Assembly (NCBI GenBank): GCA_934177545.1
Contig: CAKPPI010000001.1
Coordinates: 4,255-68,254 of the forward strand
Origin: an uncultured Bacilli bacterium
GTDB lineage: Bacteria > Bacillota_I > Bacilli_A > RF39 > UBA660
Direction: 5' to 3'
Length of the DNA stretch: 64,000 nucleotides
A program made the translations under genes and the position numbers. The notes under the pieces were generated by a model. That model was not told the DNA's origin. It did not search any database and saw only the letters and a program-made list of their open reading frames with translations. The first letter of the stretch is position 1. Each line of letters begins with the position of its first letter. Below are positions 3,892 through 64,000 of the stretch, piece after piece.

Positions 3892-5046
3892 ATGGAAAAT
3901 ATATTTGAAATAAATGATACTAATATGATAGCAATGAAACTACTTCATTATTTTATAACTGAAAGAAATTATACTCCCATAATTCTAAATGGAGTAGAAG
4001 ATGAAATTTGGTTAGAAAACTTAGATGAAGACTGTGAAATAGTAAGAATCGTTTTGCATCATATTCATAATGATGAACAATATAAATTTGATGTTTTTAA
4101 GACTAATCGAATTGTGAAAAAGATAAAAGCGAAAACATTTTCTTTTAAGTTAAATACACTAAGTATCTTTCTAAATCTAGGAAGTAGTGTTGATCTTAGT
4201 AAAGAATTACCAAAGAATGGAGTAGCTACTTGTGTAACTGATGAAAAAGATGTTAAAAAAGATAAGTTGTTACTAGCGACTTATCCTGACATATATAAAA
4301 ATATTTCTAGAAATAAAGAAAAAGGAGCAGATTTGTTTATTAAGATAACAGATGAGATTAATGAACATAATCATAGAGATCAAAAGCAGATGGATAAAGT
4401 ATTTAGACCGAAGAAACCGATTATCACTTATCTTTTAGTTCTTATAAATGTACTATTATTTGTAGTGCCTGCTCTACTTGGACAGACAGATAATATCTTT
4501 AGAGAACTAGCTGTCTTTGGACCATATATTAGACAAGGTGAATATTATAGATTAATAACAGGTACCTTTATTCATGCTAATATTGCTCACTTAATATTTA
4601 ATATGTATGCTTTGTGGATAATTGGTATTCAACTTGAGAGTTTTCTTGGTAAATGGAAATACTTACTCATCTATTTATTTAGTGGTTTAACAGCTTCCTT
4701 GATGTCCATAACTTTCCATAATACAACCGTAAGTGTGGGAGCCAGTGGAGCCATCTTTGGTTTACTTGGAGCTATGTTATACTTTGGCTATCACTACCGA
4801 GTTTACTTAGGAACTGTTATTAAAAGTCAGATAGTACCATTGATAGTTTTAAACTTAGGTTTAGGATTTTTAGTACCAGGAATTGATAATGCTGCTCATA
4901 TTGGCGGATTAATCGGGGGAGTATTAATGATGATGGCAACAGGAGTTGACTATAAAAGTGCTACTTTTGAAAAGGTAAATGGAGTAATAGTTTCTATTCT
5001 TTATTTAGCATTCTTAATTTATATGGGAATATTCTATATTCATTAG
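3892..5046 (+). CDS. rhomboid family intramembrane serine protease with an N-terminal cytoplasmic extension
   Basis: The C-terminal half has six transmembrane segments with the GASGAIFGLLGA motif (catalytic Ser) and the HIGGLIGG motif (catalytic His). Confidence 0.8.
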   Translation: MENIFEINDTNMIAMKLLHYFITERNYTPIILNGVEDEIWLENLDEDCEIVRIVLHHIHNDEQYKFDVFKTNRIVKKIKAKTFSFKLNTLSIFLNLGSSVDLSKELPKNGVATCVTDEKDVKKDKLLLATYPDIYKNISRNKEKGADLFIKITDEINEHNHRDQKQMDKVFRPKKPIITYLLVLINVLLFVVPALLGQTDNIFRELAVFGPYIRQGEYYRLITGTFIHANIAHLIFNMYALWIIGIQLESFLGKWKYLLIYLFSGLTASLMSITFHNTTVSVGASGAIFGLLGAMLYFGYHYRVYLGTVIKSQIVPLIVLNLGLGFLVPGIDNAAHIGGLIGGVLMMMATGVDYKSATFEKVNGVIVSILYLAFLIYMGIFYIH

Positions 5047-6761: not shown

Positions 6762-7722
6762 TAAGATAATACTACCTTATAATATAGAAAAGAAAATGAG
6801 CATAGCATTAAGAAAAGAATATTATAAAGATTTAAAAAGATACTGTATTGATAATGTAGTACCTAATATTAATAATTATTCTTTTGGACAAAAAGTAGTT
6901 ACTAACTTATATATGAAAGATTTTTATAATGAAAGATTAGAGTTAGAAGGAGTAGAAAACCTTGATATGAATCAAGCAATATTCCTTTGTAATCATTCAA
7001 CTGCTCATGATATATTTTCAATGTATAATATAATGGAAAGACTAAAGAGAAAGACAACTGTAATGGTTGCCACTGACTGCTTAAATCCTTTCTCTATCGC
7101 TACCTTTAAACTAGCAGATGCTACCTTTTTAGATAGAAATAGTAAAAAGTCAGCTAATAATAGTATTTTACTAGCTTCAGCTAAAGTGTTAAATGGTAAA
7201 AATTTAGTAATATTTGGAGAAGCAACCTGGAACTTACATCCTTTTAAATTAATGCATGATATTAAAAAAGGTGGAACAATGATTTCAGCTATAACTAGTG
7301 TCCCTGTTGTTCCAACTATCTTAGAGTATATAGAAGAATCAAGGCTTTGTGATAAAGAACTTGATTTATATAAAAAAATAATAGTTAGATTTGGTAAACC
7401 ATTATCAATAAACAGTAGTGACGACATAATTATTAAGACATTAGAAATTCAAGCAGAAATGGAGAAAATGCGAAGAGAAATTTGGCAAGATAATGGAGTT
7501 AATAGAACTTCTTTATCCGATATTGATCAAGATATTTATCTAAATCATACTTATCAAAAGAAATATAAAGCCTTTGGCTTCACATATGACTCTTTAAAAG
7601 AAGAGAAATTCTTAAGAAGTAATGATGGTAGTAAAATAGAAAATGAATATTGTTTAGATGAAAATAATAAACTAGTACCAGGTATTACTCCTAAGAAAAA
7701 AATATTAAAACTAAGTAACTAA
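6754..7722 (+). CDS. lysophospholipid acyltransferase (PlsC/LPLAT family)
   Basis: The H(X4)D acyltransferase motif (NHSTAHD) and a downstream FGEATW-type motif. 322 aa. Confidence 0.6.
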   Translation: MNNKIILPYNIEKKMSIALRKEYYKDLKRYCIDNVVPNINNYSFGQKVVTNLYMKDFYNERLELEGVENLDMNQAIFLCNHSTAHDIFSMYNIMERLKRKTTVMVATDCLNPFSIATFKLADATFLDRNSKKSANNSILLASAKVLNGKNLVIFGEATWNLHPFKLMHDIKKGGTMISAITSVPVVPTILEYIEESRLCDKELDLYKKIIVRFGKPLSINSSDDIIIKTLEIQAEMEKMRREIWQDNGVNRTSLSDIDQDIYLNHTYQKKYKAFGFTYDSLKEEKFLRSNDGSKIENEYCLDENNKLVPGITPKKKILKLSN

Positions 7723-7748
7723 CCCTATGATTAGTTGCTTTTTTTGAT
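7720..7748 (+). terminator. probable rho-independent terminator after the acyltransferase gene
   Basis: Hairpin aactaa-ccctatga-ttagtt followed by a T7 run. Confidence 0.5.
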
Positions 7749-7803
7749 TGTTACCTAAATAATTTTGTGATATACTCTTATTGTTAAGGTAGGTGGTAGA
7801 GTT

Positions 7804-9633
7804 TTGAGCAGTATGTACTTTACAATTAGTGGCTTATTTTGTATAGTGCTATTAATGATACTATTCTTTTCTAAAAGTAGAATAGATAGTAAAGAAACTA
7901 AACTATATGGTTTTATGCTACTTAGTAGTTTCTTTGATGTAATTTTAGTATTAGCAGAGCTTACAATAACTTATTATTTCCTAGATGATGTTAATATGTA
8001 TTTAGTAAAAGGATTAAATAAAATAGACTTTATTCATTATATAATGTGGCCGACATTACTTAGTCTATATACAATTTATGTTACCTATCTAGATGAAGAA
8101 AAATATAATAAAGCGAAAAAGATATTCTTAACTATAGATATAATTGCTATTCTTATCGAGTTTATGTTACCAATTAATATAATATCTAATAAAGAAGCAA
8201 TGGGAGTTACAGGTATTGGACCAACCTTTGTTTTTCTAATATCTTCTTTCTATGTAATAGTAAATATAATTATTTTAATAAAGAATTATAAGAAAATTAA
8301 GAATAAAAAAAATCTTCCATTTCTTTTCTTTCTTATCTTTATAATAATAGCTATGCTACTTAGAGTTTATAATCCAACATTAATAGTAATACCAGCTATA
8401 ATTGTTTATATTAATATGATAATGTATTTTACAATTGAAAACCCTGATGTTAAACTGATAGAAGAGATTAATATAGCTAAAGAGTCAGCTATTAAAGCTA
8501 GTAATGCTAAGACTGAATTCTTATCAAATATGTCTCATGAGATAAGAACACCACTTAATGCGATAGTTGGGTTTTCAGAAGCTTTACAAAGTGATGAGAG
8601 AATACCAGTAGAGACTAAGGAAGATATTAAGAATATAGTAATGGCTAGTGATAGTTTATTAGAAATAGTAAATGGTATATTAGATATTTCTAAGATAGAA
8701 GCTGATAAATTAGAAATTATTAATACAACTTATTCACCTAGAAAAATATTTGATGAATTAGTAGTATTAACTAGAGGAAGACTTGGATTTGAGAAACAAA
8801 TAGAATTTAGAACAAGTTTTAGTAGTGATATACCAACTACTTTGTATGGAGATTATGCAAGAGTAAAACAAATAGTTTTAAACTTATTAACTAATGCTGT
8901 TAAGTATACTAATGAAGGATATATTAGTTTTACGGTAGAATGTGTTAATATAAATAAAGATTTATGTAGATTAATTATTTCTGTTGAAGATAGTGGTATA
9001 GGAATTAAAAAAGATAAAATAGATAAATTATTTACTAAATTTGAACGCCTTGATGAAGAGAAAAATATTACTATTGAAGGTACTGGTCTTGGACTTGCTA
9101 TTACTAAAAAACTAGTTGAATTAATGCATGGGAAGATGGTAGTTCAAAGTATCTATGGTAAAGGAAGTAAGTTTACTGTATCACTTGATCAAAAGATAGT
9201 TGCTACTAAAGAAAAAGAAGAAATTAAAGAAAAAACAGTAGTAAAAGGTAACTATAAAGGAAAAAGAGTTTTAGTAGTAGACGATAATAAACTTAATCTA
9301 AAAGTAGCAGAAAGACTATTAAGAGAGTATAATTTATTTGTAGATGAAGTAGCAAGTGGATTTGATGCTATAGATAGAATTAATATGGGAGTACCTTATA
9401 ATCTAATCCTAATGGATGATATGATGCCTAAGATGAGTGGGTGTGAAACTTTAAAAGAATTAAAGAAGAATAAAGACTTTCATACTAAGATAGTGGCACT
9501 AACTGCTAATGCTATTTCTGGAATGAGAGAAAAATACTTAAGTGTTGGTTTTGATGATTATTTAGCTAAACCAATAAAAAAAGAAGAGTTAGAAGTTATT
9601 TTAGATAAATATTTAAAGGAGGATAAGAAATGA
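7804..9633 (+). CDS. hybrid sensor histidine kinase: multi-TM sensor, HisKA, HATPase_c and a C-terminal receiver domain
   Basis: An N-terminal membrane region of about 6 TM segments. H-box SHEIRTPLNAIVGF, G-box GTGLGLAI, and a receiver with VLVVDD...MDDMMPKMSG. TTG start at 7804, with an alternative ATG at 7813. Confidence 0.85.
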   Translation: MSSMYFTISGLFCIVLLMILFFSKSRIDSKETKLYGFMLLSSFFDVILVLAELTITYYFLDDVNMYLVKGLNKIDFIHYIMWPTLLSLYTIYVTYLDEEKYNKAKKIFLTIDIIAILIEFMLPINIISNKEAMGVTGIGPTFVFLISSFYVIVNIIILIKNYKKIKNKKNLPFLFFLIFIIIAMLLRVYNPTLIVIPAIIVYINMIMYFTIENPDVKLIEEINIAKESAIKASNAKTEFLSNMSHEIRTPLNAIVGFSEALQSDERIPVETKEDIKNIVMASDSLLEIVNGILDISKIEADKLEIINTTYSPRKIFDELVVLTRGRLGFEKQIEFRTSFSSDIPTTLYGDYARVKQIVLNLLTNAVKYTNEGYISFTVECVNINKDLCRLIISVEDSGIGIKKDKIDKLFTKFERLDEEKNITIEGTGLGLAITKKLVELMHGKMVVQSIYGKGSKFTVSLDQKIVATKEKEEIKEKTVVKGNYKGKRVLVVDDNKLNLKVAERLLREYNLFVDEVASGFDAIDRINMGVPYNLILMDDMMPKMSGCETLKELKKNKDFHTKIVALTANAISGMREKYLSVGFDDYLAKPIKKEELEVILDKYLKEDKK

Positions 9634-16077: not shown

Positions 16078-16164
16078 AGAATCCTCACAATCTTATTGTA
16101 CTATAGATTTTTCTATTTTACAAACGAAAATGGTTGAATAACTAGCAAATATTTGTTATCATTT

Positions 16165-16960
16165 AATTAAAGATAAGGAAGAGGTGATTAACTGTGTATA
16201 TGTCAATCAATATGTCAAGTTTACAACTAGTTAACATGGGGGGGGGCAATTTAGACAGTAATAATACTCTTTTTTATCATGCATTAATAACAGGATAGGA
16301 TTGGCCTTATCTTGTTTTTTAGTGTAAATAAAATAGAAGGAGTGAAAGAAAAAATGAACAACAAAAAGCAATTAATTGTATCAATTGGACTAACCTTAGT
16401 ATTAGTTCTAATGATAGTAGGAATCAGTTATGCAGCTTTTAAGTTTGTAGGACTAGGTCAGAGGGAAAATACTATAACAACAGGAGCTATAACGATGGAG
16501 TATACTGAAAGTACTAATACTATCAGTATGACAGGAGCCTTACCAACAACTGATACAACAGGAAAGGTAAGATTAACTAAAGGAGAATACTTTGATTTTA
16601 CTATTAAAAGTAGTATTCAAGGAAATGCTAATATTAACTGGGAAATAGCAGCAGAAGATATAACACCATCATCAGCTAAAAAGATGGCTGGTAAAAATAT
16701 AAAACTTTATTTAACAAAATTAGATAGTACTGGAGCAGAAACACAGGTAATGGCACCAAAAGTATATAATGTTAGTACGTCAGCAAATACAAAGACAGGA
16801 AGACCATCAGGAGTAATGAGTCTAGCAACAGGAACAATGAGTACAAGTGAGACAACAAACTATCGTCTTAGAATGTATGTAGATGAAGACTATAATCCCC
16901 AAGGAGATGGAGGAGGTTTATCATTTAGTGTTAAGATAAATGCTTATGGAAAAGTAAAAG
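16165..16960 (+). repeat. copy 1 of a ~0.8 kb duplicated segment (promoter region plus 5' CDS) shared with 60271..61060
   Basis: Near-identical sequence from aattaaagataaggaagaggtgatta through the first ~200 codons. It carries a G9 homopolymer at 16238-16246. Confidence 0.85.
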
Positions 16961-18099
16961 AAGCCCCAACAGGTAGTAAGATAAAAGCTTATATGACACA
17001 AGCTGATTATGATAATGATAACTATCCAGAAACAGACTTTCATACTGATGCTTATAGGTCAAAAATAACTAGTATTATCACAAAAAAAGATAATATAGTA
17101 CCAGCAACAGCAGTTGAAAGTTGGGATATCTCAGAAGCAGGTGATGGTTCAGTAATGGCTTATGTAGAGAAAACTGATGAGGTATTGAAACCAGAACCAG
17201 CTAATGCAGAGATATATTCTAATAAAGGAGAAACAAAAGACATGTTAGAAACAATATACGCTACACCTCTTGAGGGAACCAATACTAATTATGCTTATAA
17301 GTTAACAATAGGTGGAAAGGGTGGAATTATTGCAAATGAAAATATGGTAGGTTATTTTTATAAGTTTAAAAGAGTAACATCAATAGATTTGTCATCCTTA
17401 GATACATCGGAAGTAACAAATATGGTTGGAATGTTTAGACACTGTATCAGTTTAACAAGTTTAGATGTAAGTAAGTTTGATACATCGCAAGTAACAGATA
17501 TGAGTAATATGTTTATTGGTTGTGAAAGTTTAACAAATCTAGATGTAAGTAGTTTTGCTACATTAGAAGTAACAGATATGAGTAATATGTTTTATGAGTG
17601 TAGCAGTTTAACAAGTTTAGATTTAAGAAACTTTGATACCTCAAAAGTGACAAATATGAGTTATATGTTTGATTACTGTATCAGTTTAACAAGTTTAGAT
17701 GTAAGTAAGTTTGATACATCTAACGTAACAGATATGAGTTGGATGTTTCGTAATTGTAGCAGTTTAACAAGTTTAGATTTAAGAAACTTTGATACCTCAA
17801 AAGTGACAAATATGAGTGAGATGTTTGGTTATTGTGAAAGTTTAACAAATCTAGATGTAAGTAGTTTTGTTACATTAGAAGTAACAGATATGAGAGGTAT
17901 GTTTAATAATTGTTGCAGTTTAACAAGTTTAGATTTAAGAAGCCTTGATACATCACAAGTAACAGATATGAGTGGTATGTTTGATATATGTAGTAACTTA
18001 ACCCAAATAACTGTTTCTAATAAATGGGTAGTAGGATCAAGTACCTTAACTGATAGAATGTTTTTTAACTGTGGAACTGATCATGTAACTACTATCTAG
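16354..18099 (+). CDS. secreted or surface protein with a conserved N-terminal domain and C-terminal DUF285-type leucine-rich repeats (Mycoplasma/BspA-like)
   Basis: Signal-anchor MNNKKQLIVSIGLTLVLVLMIVGISYAAF. Eight tandem 26-aa repeats fitting C-SLTSLD-S-FDTS-VT-MS-MF. The real start is ATG at 16354; the track ORF starts further upstream. Confidence 0.75.
   Translation: MNNKKQLIVSIGLTLVLVLMIVGISYAAFKFVGLGQRENTITTGAITMEYTESTNTISMTGALPTTDTTGKVRLTKGEYFDFTIKSSIQGNANINWEIAAEDITPSSAKKMAGKNIKLYLTKLDSTGAETQVMAPKVYNVSTSANTKTGRPSGVMSLATGTMSTSETTNYRLRMYVDEDYNPQGDGGGLSFSVKINAYGKVKEAPTGSKIKAYMTQADYDNDNYPETDFHTDAYRSKITSIITKKDNIVPATAVESWDISEAGDGSVMAYVEKTDEVLKPEPANAEIYSNKGETKDMLETIYATPLEGTNTNYAYKLTIGGKGGIIANENMVGYFYKFKRVTSIDLSSLDTSEVTNMVGMFRHCISLTSLDVSKFDTSQVTDMSNMFIGCESLTNLDVSSFATLEVTDMSNMFYECSSLTSLDLRNFDTSKVTNMSYMFDYCISLTSLDVSKFDTSNVTDMSWMFRNCSSLTSLDLRNFDTSKVTNMSEMFGYCESLTNLDVSSFVTLEVTDMRGMFNNCCSLTSLDLRSLDTSQVTDMSGMFDICSNLTQITVSNKWVVGSSTLTDRMFFNCGTDHVTTI
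17380..18010 (+). repeat. tandem array of about eight 78-bp (26-codon) DUF285-type repeats
   Basis: Long exact DNA matches between units, for example agtttaacaagtttagatttaagaaactttgatacctcaaaagtgacaaatatgagt appears twice. Confidence 0.8.
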
Positions 18100-18871: not shown

Positions 18872-18936
18872 TTATTTATTCCTTGCTAAATATTAGAAAA
18901 AGTTGTAAAATAATACTGTTTTTTGGGGGTGTAACG

Positions 18937-19692
18937 ATGGAATATAAAAATATGAAAAAAAACTTAGATATTATCTTAGATAATATAGTGTTATTAGCAG
19001 AACAATTTGGCTTTAAGGAAGAAATAGATAAGTTTACTTTAATGGAACTTCTTATTAGTGATGGCTATTTGACAAAAGATAGGAAATTTGTAGTTAATGA
19101 AGATATACTATATAGAGATTTGTATGATGATATTATATTTGAACTTGGAGTAGTTCCTTTTACTGGTGAAGGTTGCTGTAGACATACTACTTCACTTGCT
19201 AAACTAATACTTGATAGATTTAATATAGAAAATGAAGTGTCTACTGCTCTTATTACTGATAAAGAAATAAATTCTAAAGAACTAATTGCAGTAAGTGATA
19301 TGGTCTTACAACCTTTAGACTGCAACCATGCTGTTAATATAGTAAAGATTGATGATAGATATATGGCTTTTGATGTAGACGTTAATAAACCAATATATTT
19401 ATATAGTATTAAGGAAAACAAATTGACTGGTTTTTTTCAAAAGGAAAGTTTAAACAGTAGCTATCTTATATATAATTATTCACCTTTCTTTGAAGGTAAA
19501 AGAAATTTTAATAGTATTACGCCACTTAGTATTTTAGAACAAGAAGATATTATAAGGAATCATAACAATACATTACTAGTGGCTAGAGCTAATATAGATT
19601 TGTTAGAAGAATTTTATACTAATAATAGACCATATATGGAAGAGATAGATAATAGTTATAAAAAAATACTAGTTAAAGAGAAGAGGCTATAA
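18937..19692 (+). CDS. transglutaminase-like (papain-fold Cys-His-Asp) domain protein, paralog 1
   Basis: GEGCCRHTTSLAKLILDRFNI fits the TGase core G-x-C-x-x-x-A...R. Downstream NHAVNIV...FDVDV supplies the His and Asp. No signal peptide. Start taken at MEYKNMKK with a GGGGGTG RBS. Confidence 0.5.
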   Translation: MEYKNMKKNLDIILDNIVLLAEQFGFKEEIDKFTLMELLISDGYLTKDRKFVVNEDILYRDLYDDIIFELGVVPFTGEGCCRHTTSLAKLILDRFNIENEVSTALITDKEINSKELIAVSDMVLQPLDCNHAVNIVKIDDRYMAFDVDVNKPIYLYSIKENKLTGFFQKESLNSSYLIYNYSPFFEGKRNFNSITPLSILEQEDIIRNHNNTLLVARANIDLLEEFYTNNRPYMEEIDNSYKKILVKEKRL

Positions 19693-19694
19693 TT

Positions 19695-20549
19695 ATGTCT
19701 ATAATGGAAATTATCAGATTTAAACAATATAAAAAGTATGTTGACAGTTACTTAGAACAAACCGAATATAAAAATATGGTAAAAGACTTAAATTGTATCT
19801 TTGATAGTATGATTAATTTATCTGATATATTTAATTTTACTAAAGATATTGAAAAGTTGTCTCTTGCTTATTTTCTTGTTGATGTCGGATATTTCTCATC
19901 TAGTGGTAGATACCATTATAATAATAATATAGAAGAAATAGGAATGGGTAGTAATCATGATAGAATTATCTCTCTTTCTTTAGTACCTATTATGGGAAAT
20001 GGTGGTTGTTGTAGACATACGGCTGCTTTATTAAGTCAAGCTTTGCACCACTTAGATATTAAAAATGACATTGCTATAGTTGATACTAGAAAAAGGGAAG
20101 TAGAGCTTTCTAGAATAAGACATTTTCTTAGTGAATTTCATCAAAAAATGTTATATAGCAGTCATGTTATTAATTATGTCTCTATTGATAATGATGAATT
20201 CTTTGTTGAAGGAGACTATGGTGGTTTTCCTCTTGATTTCTATTATGGAGATAATGGACTAGCTTTTCACTTTTTACAAGATAATTCAGTTATTAATCAT
20301 TACTTACTTTATAATTTTTCTATGTTATATGAAGAAAAAAAGAATTATGATAAAATTAATAAGATTCCAGTTGATAGACAATTAGAAATATTAGCTAATT
20401 ATAAAAAAACAATTAAACTTATTGATGATAATATTGATATAGTTATAGAGTCATATGAGGAAAATATGCCATATATGGTTGATATCAAAGATAATTATCA
20501 AAAAGTTTATACTAAAGAAGGGAAATTTAGAGAATGGTTGGAGAAATAA
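19695..20549 (+). CDS. transglutaminase-like (papain-fold Cys-His-Asp) domain protein, paralog 2
   Basis: GNGGCCRHTAALLSQALHHLDI, then SHVINYVSIDNDEF. Its overall architecture parallels the upstream paralog. Confidence 0.5.
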   Translation: MSIMEIIRFKQYKKYVDSYLEQTEYKNMVKDLNCIFDSMINLSDIFNFTKDIEKLSLAYFLVDVGYFSSSGRYHYNNNIEEIGMGSNHDRIISLSLVPIMGNGGCCRHTAALLSQALHHLDIKNDIAIVDTRKREVELSRIRHFLSEFHQKMLYSSHVINYVSIDNDEFFVEGDYGGFPLDFYYGDNGLAFHFLQDNSVINHYLLYNFSMLYEEKKNYDKINKIPVDRQLEILANYKKTIKLIDDNIDIVIESYEENMPYMVDIKDNYQKVYTKEGKFREWLEK

Positions 20550-54959: not shown

Positions 54960-55231
54960 ACAAGTTATAAAATAGTATTGTAAACTTTACTAGAAAACGT
55001 TGATGAAGAGAAGTAGTAATACTTGACTTATAAGAGAAGCTGTGGTTGGTGAAAACAGTTAAGAAAAGTATTAACGAATAACACTTCGGAGTGCTTAAAG
55101 AATAAAGTAGACTAAGCCGGGTAGACTCCCGTTAACAAGATAAGCGATTATCATGCTTGATAATAAATTGGGTGGTACCGCGGGTAAAAGACTCGTCCCT
55201 TAACTGGGATTAGAGTCTTTTTCGTTTTCTA
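54960..55231 (+). promoter_or_regulatory. T-box leader (candidate Asn AAC specifier) upstream of gatCAB-aspS2
   Basis: Stem-I distal motif GGUUGGUGAAAACAGUU. T-box sequence AAAUUGGGUGGUACCGCGG (55166-55184). Terminator aagactc...gagtctt followed by a T-run (55187-55231). Confidence 0.65.
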
Positions 55232-60192: not shown

Positions 60193-60270
60193 AGTTTGAC
60201 ATATTAACTGTATAAAATTAGTTTAAAACTAAAAATTAATTGAAAATCACCCCCTCTTTGTGTTAGAATC

Positions 60271-61060
60271 TAATTAAAGATAAGGAAGAGGTGATTACTA
60301 TGTATTTGTCAACCATAATGTCAAGTTTACAATTAGTTAACATGGGGGGGGCAATTTATATAGATTAATCACTTCTTTTTATCATGCATTAATAACGGGA
60401 TAGGACTAGTCTTATCTTGTTTTTTAGTGTAAATAAAATAGAAGGAGTGAATAAGAAAAATGAACAACAAGAAACAACTACTATTATCAATCGGACTTGT
60501 TTTAATACTAGTTCTAATGATAGTAGGAATCAGTTATGCAGCTTTTAAGTTTACTGGAACAGGTCAAAAAGCCAATACTATAACAACAGGTGCAATTACT
60601 ATGAAGTATACAGAGTCAACTAATACAATAAGTATGAATAATGCTCTACCAACAACTGATGCTACTGGGAAAGTAAGATTAACAGCTGGAGAATACTTTG
60701 ATTTTACTTTATCAGGTACAATTAAAGGATCAGAAAACATCAACTGGGAGATAGCAGCAGAAGATGTAACAACAGCATCTAGAAAGATAGATGGTAAATA
60801 TATAAAACTATATTTAACAAGTCTAGATGACACTGGTAATGAGAAAGAGGTAATGGTACCTAAAGTATATAAAACTGAATCAACAGAAAATACATATACT
60901 GGACGTCCTGCTAATATGATGAGTCTAGCTAAAGGAACAACATCTACAAGCTTCTCTACAAAATACCGTCTTAGAATGTATGTAGATGAAAGTTATAACC
61001 CGCAGGGAGATGGAGGAAACTTAGCATTTAGTATAAAGATAAATGCTTATGGTAAAACAG
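60271..61060 (+). repeat. copy 2 of the ~0.8 kb duplicated promoter/5'-CDS segment (G8 tract at 60344-60351)
   Basis: Near-identical to 16165..16960. The homopolymer length differs by one G. Confidence 0.85.
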
Positions 61061-62373
61061 GTGAAATGATGCTTTCTACAGTAGCAGAAGCACTACAAAG
61101 CAATGGACTAGGAGCAAATGGAGTATTTGATACAAGTGACCCAGAGCAGACATTTGTTACTGGAACAGGTCCTGATAACTATATTTGGTATAGTGGAAAA
61201 CTATGGAGAGCAGTATCAATAGATTCAACTGATAACTCTGTAAAATTAGTAACACAGTGGAATATATCAGCCTTACCATATAATGAAGAAAATAATTCTG
61301 AATTTAAAGGAAGCTATATGGAGCAGTGGTTGAATGATACTTCAGTAGATGGTTTCTTAGGAAACCTAAGAGAACCAGATAAATTTATTAAAACAGATAG
61401 TGTTTGGAATGCTACTATGACTAAGGAAACTACAAAGCCAGAGAAGACTACCATGGTAACAGATACTGTAGGTTTACTAAATTTTTATGAGTATACAATG
61501 AGTTACAAAAATGCTAAAGCTGAAACTGGCTATTTAAATAATGGTTTAGAGTGGTGGACGTTGACACCTTATAGTACGTCGAACGTCCGTTACGTCGAGG
61601 GCCGCGGTTACAGCAGCAGCTATAGTCCGGCGCATTCGGATGGCTCTCGCCCATCTATAAATCTAAAATCTGCTGTAAAAATTATAGACGGTGATGGAAC
61701 CAGTAATAATCCGTACAGGCTTCAAGGCGATAATGATAATCCAACAGGAGCATTGTTATCAACAAGATATAGTGGTGAATATATAAGTTTTGGAACCGGC
61801 GAAAATGATCTGTATCGAATAGTAAGCCATGAAAATGGAACTGGTACTAAAATAACAAGTGCTATACCTATAAAATATAGTGGTAGTTATAAAGAGCTTG
61901 CTTTTGGAAGTAATACAACATTTTCTAAAGATAATACAATAGGAACGTTCTTAAATAGTGATTATTTGACAAATGGTACCTATCTAACTAGTGACCAAGT
62001 AAGTATGATAGAAGATAATACAACATGGTATTTGGGAACTGTAGGATATGCTAGTTATAAATTAGCAAAATATCAAGATGCAACAGGTAGCAATCTAACA
62101 ACATCAACTACTACTGCTCAAATAGGACTACTAAGAGTAGGTGAATTAATGGCAGGACAATTTGACAAATATAATAATAATGTTAGTTATTGGACATTAA
62201 CACCTTATAGTACCTCGTACATCCGTGGCGTCAGCTACACCGGTGTCAACGGCGGCTTTCATCCGGCGAATTCGTACGGCTCTCGCCCATCTATGAATCT
62301 AAAATCTAATGTGATAATAACTGGTGGAAAAGGTACGGCTCGGGAACCATTCACTATAAAGTTAGGTAGCTAA
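60460..62373 (+). CDS. secreted or surface protein paralog with a distinct C-terminal region that carries two GC-rich motif repeats
   Basis: The N-terminal ~200 aa are near-identical to the 16354 protein. The C-terminus contains the motifs WWTLTPYSTSNVRYVEGRGYSSSYSPAHSDGSRPSINLKS and YWTLTPYSTSYIRGVSYTGVNGGFHPANSYGSRPSMNLKS. Confidence 0.75.
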   Translation: MNNKKQLLLSIGLVLILVLMIVGISYAAFKFTGTGQKANTITTGAITMKYTESTNTISMNNALPTTDATGKVRLTAGEYFDFTLSGTIKGSENINWEIAAEDVTTASRKIDGKYIKLYLTSLDDTGNEKEVMVPKVYKTESTENTYTGRPANMMSLAKGTTSTSFSTKYRLRMYVDESYNPQGDGGNLAFSIKINAYGKTGEMMLSTVAEALQSNGLGANGVFDTSDPEQTFVTGTGPDNYIWYSGKLWRAVSIDSTDNSVKLVTQWNISALPYNEENNSEFKGSYMEQWLNDTSVDGFLGNLREPDKFIKTDSVWNATMTKETTKPEKTTMVTDTVGLLNFYEYTMSYKNAKAETGYLNNGLEWWTLTPYSTSNVRYVEGRGYSSSYSPAHSDGSRPSINLKSAVKIIDGDGTSNNPYRLQGDNDNPTGALLSTRYSGEYISFGTGENDLYRIVSHENGTGTKITSAIPIKYSGSYKELAFGSNTTFSKDNTIGTFLNSDYLTNGTYLTSDQVSMIEDNTTWYLGTVGYASYKLAKYQDATGSNLTTSTTTAQIGLLRVGELMAGQFDKYNNNVSYWTLTPYSTSYIRGVSYTGVNGGFHPANSYGSRPSMNLKSNVIITGGKGTAREPFTIKLGS

Positions 62374-62474: not shown

Positions 62475-64000
62475 ATGAATATTAGAAAAATTAGTACTAA
62501 GAATTTAGTACGAATACTAGTAGTTTTAATTATTTTAATAGGTGGAATCTTTGCTAAGAAAACATTAACATCTTATGCTTTATTAGAAAGTAGTGAAGCA
62601 CCTAGTAAATTAGTTACTAGTACAGGTAATGTTATGTCTGATAGAGTAAGTCTTTTTGATGACTTAGATGGGGATGAAATTATTTCATTAGTACCTTTCT
62701 ATGGAATGGATGATAATGGTAATAAATATACTGTATATTGTCTTGAGAAAAGTAAAGACTTTGCTCCAAATCAGACAGTAACTAAAGTTAATACACCACT
62801 TGATGATGGATATACCTATATAATAAAAAATGGTTATCCTAATAAAAGCTTAACAGAAAATAATAAAAATGATAATTATTTAACGCAAATAGCAGTATGG
62901 CTCTATCAAGATAGATCAGCAGGTGTAAGTGATACTACTAATGGAGTGCTTACTGCTAATCAAAAAAGTTCAATTAAGAAAAGTAGTTATTATACTGTAA
63001 TTAATAATTTAGTAACAGGAGCGATGAATGCTAAAAACACTACTAATATTACTAATCCGACCTTTAGTGTAAGTAGTGGAACATTATCTACTGATAGTGA
63101 TAATACTTATCTAATCAGTAATGTCATGAGAATAACTTCTAATACTGATGAGTTTATTAACTATAAAGTAGTCGCTTCTAGTAGTGATATTTTAGCAAGT
63201 GATATAGAAATACTTGATGAAAATAATAATGTAATAACTACTAATAGTGCTATAGCTAAAGATAAAGGCTTTAAAATTAGAGTACCTTTAGCAAAGATAA
63301 AGAAAGCATCTAGTATAAATATTGATATTATCAATAACTATAAAGATTATAAGACCTATGGTTATGAACCACCAGAGGGTATGAAAGATACTATGCAAAA
63401 GTCATTTGTATCCTTGCTAGCTGCTAATGTAACATCTAAACAAATATCTACTAGTCTTAATATGCCAGTAGGAAGTATTACTATTAATAAAATAGATAGT
63501 ACTAATAATAACTTAGCTGGAGCTAATTTTACTATTAAGAGATTAGCAACTAATGAAATAGTAGATAGTTTTACTACAACAACTACAGCACATGTAACAT
63601 CTAACTTGTTACCAGGTAATTATGAAATTACCGAAACAGCTGCTCCTAGTGGTTATTATATAACAGATAAGACAACTAATATAACAATAACAAGTAATGC
63701 CTTAAATAAAACTAAAACAATAACTAATAGCCAAGCAGAAGTATCAATTAGAAAGATAGATAGTGTTAGTAAACAAGTAGTAAGTGGGGCAGTTTTGAAA
63801 ATAGTAAATAGTGCTAATCAAACAGTAAAAACTATTACTACTACAAATGACTATACTAAAATAACTGGTCTTTCACTTGGAACTTATAAAGTAGTAGAAG
63901 TAACTGCTCCTGATGGTTATACCGTAAATACTACGGCTAAAGAATTTACTTTAAGTAGTACTAATCCAAAGGTAACTCTAGATTATGCTGATCAACAAAA
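62475..64000 (+). CDS. thioester-domain (TED) adhesin with CnaB/SpaA-type isopeptide domains; the 3' end lies outside the window
   Basis: Signal or TM segment at the N-terminus. Cys in YCLEKSKDF plus TQIAVWLY (the TQxxxW thioester motif). Repeated prealbumin-like domains (ITINKIDSTNNNLAGANFTI...LLPGNYEITETAAPSGY). No stop before position 64000. Confidence 0.65.
   Translation, partial: MNIRKISTKNLVRILVVLIILIGGIFAKKTLTSYALLESSEAPSKLVTSTGNVMSDRVSLFDDLDGDEIISLVPFYGMDDNGNKYTVYCLEKSKDFAPNQTVTKVNTPLDDGYTYIIKNGYPNKSLTENNKNDNYLTQIAVWLYQDRSAGVSDTTNGVLTANQKSSIKKSSYYTVINNLVTGAMNAKNTTNITNPTFSVSSGTLSTDSDNTYLISNVMRITSNTDEFINYKVVASSSDILASDIEILDENNNVITTNSAIAKDKGFKIRVPLAKIKKASSINIDIINNYKDYKTYGYEPPEGMKDTMQKSFVSLLAANVTSKQISTSLNMPVGSITINKIDSTNNNLAGANFTIKRLATNEIVDSFTTTTTAHVTSNLLPGNYEITETAAPSGYYITDKTTNITITSNALNKTKTITNSQAEVSIRKIDSVSKQVVSGAVLKIVNSANQTVKTITTTNDYTKITGLSLGTYKVVEVTAPDGYTVNTTAKEFTLSSTNPKVTLDYADQQ

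Follow-up and report, generated by a model that had tools for sequence, protein, structure and literature searches.

A poly-G tract in a short leader ORF as a candidate phase-variation switch of modular surface-protein genes from uncultured gut Bacilli

Introduction

Textbooks describe both leader-peptide attenuation and phase variation through slippage of repeats. In the opa and pilC genes of Neisseria and in the poly-G genes of Campylobacter jejuni, the repeat is located in the structural gene and the OFF state corresponds to a truncated protein. The Vlp, Vsp and Vsa proteins of Mycoplasma (genes vlp, vsp and vsa) are lipoproteins whose switches are either poly-A tracts in the promoter spacer or site-specific inversions. 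In leader-peptide attenuators, such as those of E. coli pyrBI and of resistance genes from Firmicutes, a translating ribosome blocks a terminator. Such attenuators sense a physiological signal, for example the UTP level or a ribosome stalled by an antibiotic. Here, we analyzed a stretch of 64,000 nucleotides (nt) from an uncultured Bacilli bacterium (contig CAKPPI010000001.1, positions 4,255 to 68,254; hereafter the window), in which two genes encoding modular surface proteins, genes A and B, share a 5' segment. The leader of this segment is a candidate phase-variation switch, as judged from its sequence and from RNA modelling.

Two switches found upstream of a surface-protein open reading frame (ORF) are of particular interest for comparison. 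For cwpV of Clostridioides difficile, Emerson et al. (2009, PMC2784873) describe a recombinase that inverts a 195-bp element located between promoter and ORF. Upstream of the adhesin ORF uspA1 of Moraxella catarrhalis, a tract of G8-G12 alters the mRNA level according to its length, and the lengths that give high expression shift upon insertion of a neighbouring base (PMC7302503). In our literature search, no description was found of a contingency tract joined to an upstream ORF or an attenuator. Gating by a poly-G leader ORF and a terminator thus looks like an apparently undescribed on/off switch.

Our overall explanation is a phase-variable attenuation that would be exerted by the leader G-tract on the shared 5' module of paralogous surface genes. 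We consider this explanation probable, though by no means strongly so. Our confidence is higher for the anatomy of the leaders and for the switching of frame by the tract, and lower for the occlusion of the terminator and for which of the two states is ON.

Results

Anatomy of the two leaders

The genes and the features of their leaders are the following (positions in the window):

16354-18099, + strand: gene A, 581 amino acids (aa)
60460-62373, + strand: gene B, 637 aa
16134..16162, + strand: copy A sigma-70 promoter, TTGAAT, 17-nt spacer, TATCAT, with a TG extension (promoter scan)
60240..60269, + strand: copy B sigma-70 promoter, TTGAAA, 18-nt spacer, TAGAAT, with a TG extension (promoter scan)
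16169..16353, + strand: copy A leader RNA, ~185 nt, with a hairpin named P1; 86.6% identical to copy B
60276..60459, + strand: copy B leader RNA, with the P1 hairpin and a terminator
16194..16298, + strand: copy A leader ORF, 34 codons, long frame, VYMSINMSSLQLVNMGGGNLDSNNTLFYHALITG then stop, with the Shine-Dalgarno sequence (SD) AGGAAGAGGTGA upstream
16238..16246, + strand: copy A G9 homopolymer, within the leader ORF, read ATG GGG GGG GGC
16289..16322, + strand: copy A intrinsic terminator, 11-pair stem, 6-nt loop and T-run (hairpin 16289-16316)
60300..60368, + strand: copy B leader ORF, 22 codons, short frame, MYLSTIMSSLQLVNMGGAIYID then stop
60344..60351, + strand: copy B G8 homopolymer, within the leader ORF
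60394..60427, + strand: copy B intrinsic terminator, 12-pair stem, 4-nt loop and T-run (hairpin 60394-60421)

In both leaders, the SD AGGAAGAGGTGA heads a short ORF that crosses the homopolymer. Exactly one intrinsic terminator separates the leader ORF from the ribosome-binding site (RBS) of the main gene in each leader, compared with about 0 in shuffled sequences. The leader ORF of copy A ends at a TAG (16296-16298) that lies in the terminator's 5' arm, 7 nt into the stem. The short frame of copy B ends at 60366-60368, 28 nt upstream of the terminator stem, and one additional G would restore the long frame, which would then end at a TAG inside the terminator (60401-60403). For both A and B, only one of the three frames that follow the tract reaches the terminator, the other two stopping 28-37 nt short of it. 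The two leaders therefore have the layout of a leader-peptide attenuator, i.e. an SD-led ORF reaching an intrinsic terminator upstream of a gene. They also have a homopolymer placed as in a contingency locus, since the gain or loss of one G changes the frame of the leader ORF.

These homopolymers are exceptional in the window. The two leader tracts are its only G/C runs of at least 7 nt, whereas 0.04 runs of at least 8 nt would be expected. AGTTWAC-N4-5-AGTTAAC(A/C)T invariably comes before the G-run, both in the window (16230-16237 and 60335-60343) and in related leaders. This motif is a near-direct repeat that is also able to fold into a small hairpin. Furthermore, related leaders are preceded by the same promoter as copy A. 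A scan of the window with Rfam at gathering thresholds returned only a T-box and a tRNA, with no family at the leaders, and permissive Rfam scans of both leaders gave only chance-level matches.

Extent and age of the shared segment

The BLASTN alignment of positions 16154-16953 and 60261-61056 spans 802 columns, of which 79.05% are identical (E = 0). A preliminary description of this DNA had reported this segment at about these positions, and the similarity is indeed far above chance. It had also listed a promoter, an RBS, a signal sequence and about 200 codons as its components, all of which were confirmed. This inventory had overlooked the leader of ~185 nt, with its ORF, its G9/G8 run and its terminator. 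Moreover, the copies had been presented as near-identical at the DNA level, which is not the case, since the measured identity is 79% for DNA and 73% for protein.

Identity between A and B varies strongly along the segment. It is 38% upstream of the -35 box (unrelated), 57% in the promoter, 86.6% in the leader, 85.6% in the signal-peptide codons (1-30) and 74.3% in the N-domain codons (31-200). The next 300 nt beyond this N-terminal module (N-module) are unrelated (37%). The homology extends from the sigma-70 promoter to about codon 203. At the protein level, the identity of 73% across 203 residues is accompanied by a synonymous divergence (dS) of 0.66 and a nonsynonymous divergence (dN) of 0.21 (dN/dS 0.32). 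From these values, genes A and B are old paralogues under purifying selection and not the product of a recent duplication. The leader (87% identical) is the most conserved portion of the segment and is much more conserved than synonymous sites (pS 0.44). According to tblastn, the 64-kb window contains only two copies of the shared module.

Tract length and reading frame in related leaders

A search of reference genomes with the N-module led to 25 loci, all from uncultured gut Bacilli or 'Tenericutes' metagenome-assembled genomes (MAGs). 'Clostridium sp. CAG:451' is among these sources, and each genome has at least 4-6 paralogues. Metagenome contigs were scanned with a leader segment located outside the G-run, which makes the scan unbiased as to tract length. 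This yielded 80 further loci, mostly from the human gut. The combined set comprises 85 leaders (81 unique), and the 72 unique leaders with a parsed SD-led ORF were used for frame counts.

The frame of the leader ORF differs strikingly between leaders with and without a tract. Where the G-run has decayed or been deleted, the long ORF is kept in 24 of 26 leaders. The tract was lost through at least 11 distinct replacements or deletions, and the resulting ORFs of 27-48 codons are all in-frame. Among the leaders with a G-run of at least 6 nt, only 10 of 46 are in the long frame and the other 36 are frameshifted (Fisher p = 3.5e-9 for the comparison of the two groups). At the level of sequence comparison, the frame retention in tract-less leaders shows the coding signature of a leader ORF, from which we infer that this ORF is translated. 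As these leaders are locked in the long frame, this also argues for the long frame being the ON state.

Frame state tracks tract length: in the context of A and B, G9 gives the long frame whereas G8 and G10 give a short one. Tract length ranges from G6 to G11 across leaders. Leaders with identical flanks carry different tracts, namely G8 (L087), G9 (L091) and G10 (L089), i.e. a slippable homopolymer shows length polymorphism between otherwise identical alleles, as in contingency loci. Moreover, 62 of the 63 G/C runs of at least 8 nt found in 845 kb of loci lie within the leader context. Three distant leaders (L020, L022 and L023, with 57-60% identity in the N-module) have a different terminator sequence, and their long frame nevertheless ends at the 5' arm or the loop of the terminator.

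Two types of leaders, with a common promoter and a common 5' AAAGATAAG, were distinguished. Those of type 2 have a longer SD-led ORF (MMYILICKSTTRKLRKSISTSLVNQQLTW-Gn...), which enters the tract in another frame. One leader is unusual: in L106 (leader 4647-4796, - strand), a leader ORF with a G7 tract crosses the terminator and enters the main gene in-frame, which would yield an N-terminally extended protein. No other such case was observed. Some genes of the family carried by scaffolds of Clostridium sp. CAG:451 (L004, L005 and L010) have lost the promoter, the leader ORF and the G-run, so that what remains of the leader is its final ~40 nt, with the T-run and the RBS. These genes may be constitutive or co-transcribed with the upstream gene.

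Folding of the leader RNA

Both leaders fold much more stably than shuffled sequences (z = -5.85 for A and -7.14 for B). From 45 type 1 leaders, RNAalifold recovers the long P1 hairpin and the terminator. In P1, the region that carries the SD and the start of the leader ORF base-pairs with sequence lying just upstream of the terminator. One pair of P1 clearly covaries (AU 22, GC 12, GU 7), and the remaining pairs change on one side only because the leaders of the set are closely related.

Each leader was also folded with a constraint representing a ribosome footprint of 30 nt. With the footprint at the stop of the long frame, no pair of the terminator forms. With the footprint at the stop of the short frame, the full terminator hairpin of 11-12 pairs forms (-11.5 kcal/mol). 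The 5' AAGAUAAGG is complementary to the 3' arm of the terminator (duplex of -11.9 and -9.3 kcal/mol). This pairing was found in no minimum-energy fold, and direct occlusion by the ribosome, without any antiterminator structure, may be sufficient.

These elements can be combined as follows. The SD-led leader ORF contains a hypermutable run of G8-G11. In the long frame, a ribosome trailing RNA polymerase would cover the 5' arm of the terminator; the hairpin would then not form and transcription would proceed into the surface-protein gene (ON). In either short frame, the ribosome would depart ~30 nt earlier, the terminator would form and transcription would stop (OFF). Gain or loss of one G by slipped-strand mispairing would toggle this state heritably, and independently for each member of the family. 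As assembled, gene A (G9) is predicted to be ON and gene B (G8) to be OFF.

A shared N-module joined to various C-terminal modules

The two proteins are organized as follows:

16354..16962, + strand: gene A N-module, a signal/transmembrane helix with GISYA/AF, then a beta-sandwich domain of ~170 residues
16963..18099, + strand: gene A C-module, a linker and DUF285/PARCEL leucine-rich repeats
60460..61068, + strand: gene B N-module, a signal/transmembrane helix with GISYA/AF, then a beta-sandwich domain
61069..62373, + strand: gene B C-module, two DUF6273-type domains (WWTLTPYSTS...GSRPS motifs)

The N-module matches no Pfam or NCBIfam family. AlphaFold models that of gene B as a transmembrane helix followed by a ten-strand beta-sandwich (pLDDT 80, pTM 0.72). 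An exhaustive search with the N-module retrieved 1,893 representative clusters (50% identity) at E <= 1e-3, including 703 at E <= 1e-10. In these proteins, the N-module invariably occupies the N-terminus. It either stands alone (~200-230 aa) or is extended by as many as ~1,500 residues (fusions of up to 1743 aa). The family consists of secreted or surface proteins of uncultured human-gut Bacilli that are relatives of 'Clostridium sp. CAG:451'.

Pfam searches agree with the repeats initially assigned to the C-terminal parts. The C-module of gene A matches PF03382 (DUF285) at 1.8e-55 and TIGR02167 (PARCEL) at 2.3e-82 in 8 stretches. That of gene B, with the WWTLTPYSTS/GSRPS motif repeats, matches PF19789 (DUF6273) in two stretches (1.3e-09; 38.6 bits for a cut-off of 23.5). 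Gene B also contains an internal DNA repeat (61555-61682 and 62191-62318). Among 65 complete genes of the family retrieved with the loci, the same N-module is joined to at least three classes of C-terminal regions, in keeping with the modular architecture initially proposed. The first corresponds to PARCEL/DUF285 repeats in variable number (411-744 aa), the second to two DUF6273 domains (~637-650 aa), and the third has no Pfam match (493-563 aa).

Comparison of family members makes recombination through the N-module visible in two sequences. L072 is a mosaic, being 88% identical to A in columns 45-135 and 83% identical to B in columns 135-216. P0018, encoded at the B locus of L132, is a chimera between a 5' part of A type and the last 13 residues of the resident gene of B type.

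Pseudogenes and insertions of insertion sequences (IS) are common in the family. The main gene is truncated in L091, L103, L007, L002:6001, L106, L113 and L058, those of L091 and L103 encoding 115 aa. The lesions comprise nonsense mutations, frameshifts within 5'-proximal A-runs, and stretches replaced by unrelated sequence. IS elements are found within or between genes of the family (L001:7089-8249; L002:4034-5391 and 7358-8715). For instance, P0019 is truncated by an IS110 insertion, and one tandem array consists of family genes alternating with copies of IS3.

Relationship with TasA and SipW

The preliminary description had also noted a resemblance to SipW-cognate signal peptides of TasA/camelysin-type proteins. 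The link with SipW is supported by relatives that carry peptidase genes detected by TIGR02228, whereas homology with the TasA family is not supported by the searches for M73, by hhalign or by Foldseek. Neither Pfam PF12389 (Peptidase_M73) nor NCBIfam NF046066 matches either window protein, and M73 matches none of 61 family members even at E <= 10. Two distant members match NF046066 at E ~ 0.01 over their N-terminal ~65 residues, with 15 bits for a cut-off of 450. Comparison by hhalign of the family profile with a profile of 36 TasA/CalY sequences gave a probability of 8.7% (E = 0.0039) over columns 1-70 only. A PDB profile search with the N-domain found nothing, and Foldseek returned jelly-rolls of a generic kind, the TasA fibre coming only at rank 21 (TM-score 0.34). 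Homology of the N-domain with TasA/camelysin over its whole length was therefore not retained, since only the signal peptide and the first strands align. In these columns, hhalign, run against this profile and against TasA alone (a sequence validated against 8AUR), pairs SYA/AF with TWA/AF of TasA, and NTITTGAITM with ATFASGTLDL, which is suggestive. A type IV pilin was also considered. Of 61 members, 17 gave weak Pilin_N matches that stay under the cut-off (best E = 0.011), and this idea was rejected because the matches cover only the hydrophobic helix, with no class III cleavage motif.

The search for a sipW-type peptidase gene was successful in four relatives (L128, L130, L053 and L132). 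TIGR02228 (SipW/archaeal-type signal peptidase I, cut-off 51.85) detects such a gene in L128 (9431-10096, 97.7 bits) and in L053 (4262-5416, 81.3 bits). In L128 and L130, which are from MAGs of spore-forming Firmicutes, 3-4 tandem stand-alone N-module genes are directly followed by the gene encoding the SipW-type peptidase. They belong to a conserved cluster of eight genes located between tatD and ksgA (L128:6524-11764; L130:7218-11996), whose N-module genes encode 204-216 aa. This cluster includes three uncharacterized genes encoding a protein of 180 aa with N-module-like motifs, a protein of 229 aa and a polytopic membrane protein of 145 aa. It looks like an uncharacterized operon for a secreted fibre or matrix.

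In L053 and L132, the SipW-type peptidase gene lies ~4.4 kb downstream of the B-type gene. The gene order is that of the 3' end of the window, i.e. the B-locus gene followed by a thioester/SpaA adhesin gene. The adhesin is followed by a secreted protein of 217 aa (GFAAF signal), the SipW-type peptidase, a DUF5305 protein and a protein of 502 aa whose signal is similar to GFAAF. As the window ends before the position of the peptidase gene, we infer the linkage in this genome from the common gene order. In both relatives, the peptidase domain is fused behind a polytopic membrane domain of ~250 residues (L053:4262-5416, - strand; L132:12303-13433), and the DUF5305 protein always adjoins this fused peptidase. 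Processing of the window proteins is probably carried out by a SipW-type signal peptidase whose gene lies nearby, with a predicted SipW-type cleavage after A27, and the N-terminal beta-sandwich may be a TasA-like polymerising unit.

Genomic neighbourhood

Genes A and B are both complete, have their own promoters and are located 44 kb apart among housekeeping genes. Gene A is surrounded by znuA and a ZIP transporter gene, whereas gene B is preceded by gatB and aspS and followed by an adhesin gene:

62475..64000, + strand: start of a thioester-domain (TED)/SpaA-fold adhesin gene, directly after the terminator of gene B, running off the window

A full-length relative of this adhesin has 1171 aa with nine SpaA stretches (L053 6181-9696). 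The operon that precedes gene B, with gatB and aspS among its genes, has the T-box leader upstream of it (54991-55203, 141 bits). Elsewhere in the window, two tandem paralogous ORFs of 269 and 284 aa (18883-19692 and 19695-20549) carry a common G(E/N)GxCCRHT motif and match no Pfam family.

No recombinase gene adjoins A or B, and no silent copy was found. None of the 97 leaders examined has an inverted core. An invertible element was therefore rejected as the basis of the switch, all the more so as the arms of P1 are not DNA inverted repeats: they rely on G-U pairs and thus match as RNA and not as DNA.

Discussion

Strength of the proposed switch

Several points weigh against the proposed attenuation. 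In Bacillus subtilis, translation is often not coupled to transcription, which would weaken occlusion by the ribosome, although leader-peptide attenuators do operate in Firmicutes. P1 sequesters the SD and the start codon of the leader ORF, so that its translation would need co-transcriptional loading of the ribosome, and the support of P1 by covariation comes mainly from one pair. The terminator stem is modest, with only 3 G-C pairs (-11.5 kcal/mol). Type 2 leaders have an internal ATG devoid of SD directly before the G-run, which makes their ON/OFF class ambiguous. Some members of the family, those of L004, L005 and L010, have no 5' leader. All tract lengths are those of assembly consensus sequences, and sequencing is known to have difficulties with poly-G. 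As for the dependence on SipW, TIGR04088 (SipW-cognate signal) does not match the window proteins at E <= 1, the distant member P0344 reaches 13.3 bits for a cut-off of 19, and no peptidase gene lies within the 64-kb window itself.

Alternatives to phase-variable attenuation

The last of the general points can be turned into an explanation of its own, in which the differences in tract length are errors of sequencing or assembly, the ORF is always long or irrelevant and nothing switches. All data are indeed consensus assemblies of metagenomes, several of them at low coverage, and homopolymers are error-prone. However, errors affecting an always-long ORF would leave most leaders in the long frame, whereas 36 of 46 are out of frame. 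Furthermore, the concentration of 62 of 63 long G-runs in one context needs selection as an explanation, and recurrent lengths agree between the window copies and independent assemblies. This makes a mere artefact the least credible of the alternatives, and a highly improbable one. The leader could instead be an ordinary cis-regulatory RNA, i.e. a riboswitch or an attenuator controlled by a protein or a small RNA, the ORF and the G-run being incidental. Such an element would explain the strong folding (z = -5.9 and -7.1), the conservation of P1 and of the terminator with one covarying pair, and the attenuator-like alternative pairing offered by the complementarity of the 5' AAGAUAAGG to the terminator 3' arm (-11.9 kcal/mol). 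It is at odds with the absence of any match to an Rfam family and with the absence of this pairing from all minimum-energy folds. Moreover, an aptamer would not tolerate variation from G6 to G11 or deletion of the tract region, which is seen in ~10 leaders, and the maintenance of frame in 24 of 26 tract-less leaders despite many indels is unexpected for a non-coding element. We hold a regulatory RNA of this kind to be unlikely.

The G-run might also act on transcription without any translation, as the spacer of an internal promoter or through a DNA or RNA structure. This has been proposed for uspA1, where the length of a tract upstream of the ORF can set the mRNA level (PMC7302503). In copy B, a promoter-like TTAACA-18-TAGATT spans the tract, and several leaders keep a distance of nearly 16 nt between TTAACA and TATAGT. 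Nevertheless, copy A and many other leaders have no promoter spanning the tract, and a transcript started at such a promoter would still include the terminator. As this mechanism also leaves unexplained the conserved SD-led ORF, the maintenance of its frame and the position of its stop within the terminator, we regard it as quite unlikely. The preliminary description had suggested a cassette system for surface variation. In a programmed form of it, cassettes or gene conversion would swap C-terminal modules. The mosaic L072 and the chimeric P0018 at L132, the tandem arrays of the relatives L002, L006 and L009, and the IS elements found in or between family genes could be viewed as traces of such a system. 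However, A and B are complete genes with their own promoters, 44 kb apart, with no silent copies and no adjoining recombinase gene; their dS of 0.66 means no recent homogenisation; inverted leaders amount to 0 of 97; and the recombinants resemble occasional evolutionary events. Module shuffling is therefore an evolutionary process and not a programmed one, and we hold a cassette system to be very unlikely.

A broader reading joins the switch to the properties of the proteins. A poly-G tract in a translated leader peptide, with a stop inside the terminator, would precede most members of the family, the N-domain would possibly be a TasA-like polymerising unit displaying interchangeable adhesin modules, and the family would depend on SipW. 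We put this joint reading forward tentatively, as it seems to us nearly as likely to hold as to fail.

Significance

If phase-variable attenuation by the leader is confirmed, genes could be switched fully and reversibly without any truncated product. The signature of the switch, i.e. an SD, a short ORF with a homopolymer and a stop inside a terminator, could be searched for to find contingency loci in Gram-positive and uncultured gut bacteria. It would also mean that a large unannotated family of N-domains (~1,900 clusters) is genomically tied to SipW-type peptidases, and that secreted proteins of matrices or fibres, on the TasA/SipW model, extend to gut Bacilli with reduced genomes. Such uncultured organisms would have a stochastic, host-facing repertoire of adhesins.

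Comparison with known systems

The closest functional analogue of the leader switch is cwpV, a phase-variable surface protein gene of a Gram-positive bacterium in which an intrinsic terminator forms or not in the leader transcript (PMC2784873). It differs by the nature of the switch, which is here a poly-G tract in a leader ORF, without inverted states or an adjacent recombinase. The behaviour of uspA1 upon insertion of a neighbouring base has a counterpart in one leader (L002), where G8 plus an A behaves as G9. The effect described for uspA1 is graded, with no leader ORF or terminator described (PMC7302503), whereas here the ORF is SD-led, the predicted effect has a period of 3 and the read-out would be a terminator.

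As in pyrBI-type attenuators, a short upstream ORF enters the attenuator hairpin and the position of the ribosome would decide between termination and read-through; the input here would instead be a heritable frameshift of the leader ORF. The leaders share with opa, pilC and the C. jejuni genes a hypermutable homopolymer, an AT-rich genome, frameshifts by +/-1 and many members of a surface family, most of them out of frame. However, the structural gene is intact here and the frameshift would act via a separate leader ORF.

Like the vlp, vsp and vsa genes of Mycoplasma, members of the family combine a conserved 5' region (promoter, leader and signal peptide) with divergent C-terminal repeats, and individual members would likewise be under homopolymer or recombination switches. 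DUF285/PARCEL repeats are even common to gene A and mycoplasma lipoproteins. The family differs from the latter by the absence of a lipobox, by a SipW-type signal and by a switch that would rely on a leader ORF and a terminator. Finally, it resembles the tapA-sipW-tasA system of Bacillus subtilis (TasA fibre, PDB 8AUR) by the signal xxA/AF followed by an (N/A)T(F/I)xxGx(L/I) strand, by secreted beta-sandwich proteins and by a SipW-type peptidase gene beside the substrate genes. It differs from this system by the lack of detectable homology over the whole domain, by a peptidase that is fused to a polytopic membrane domain in the lineage of the window, and by an N-module that carries large adhesin-like C-modules.

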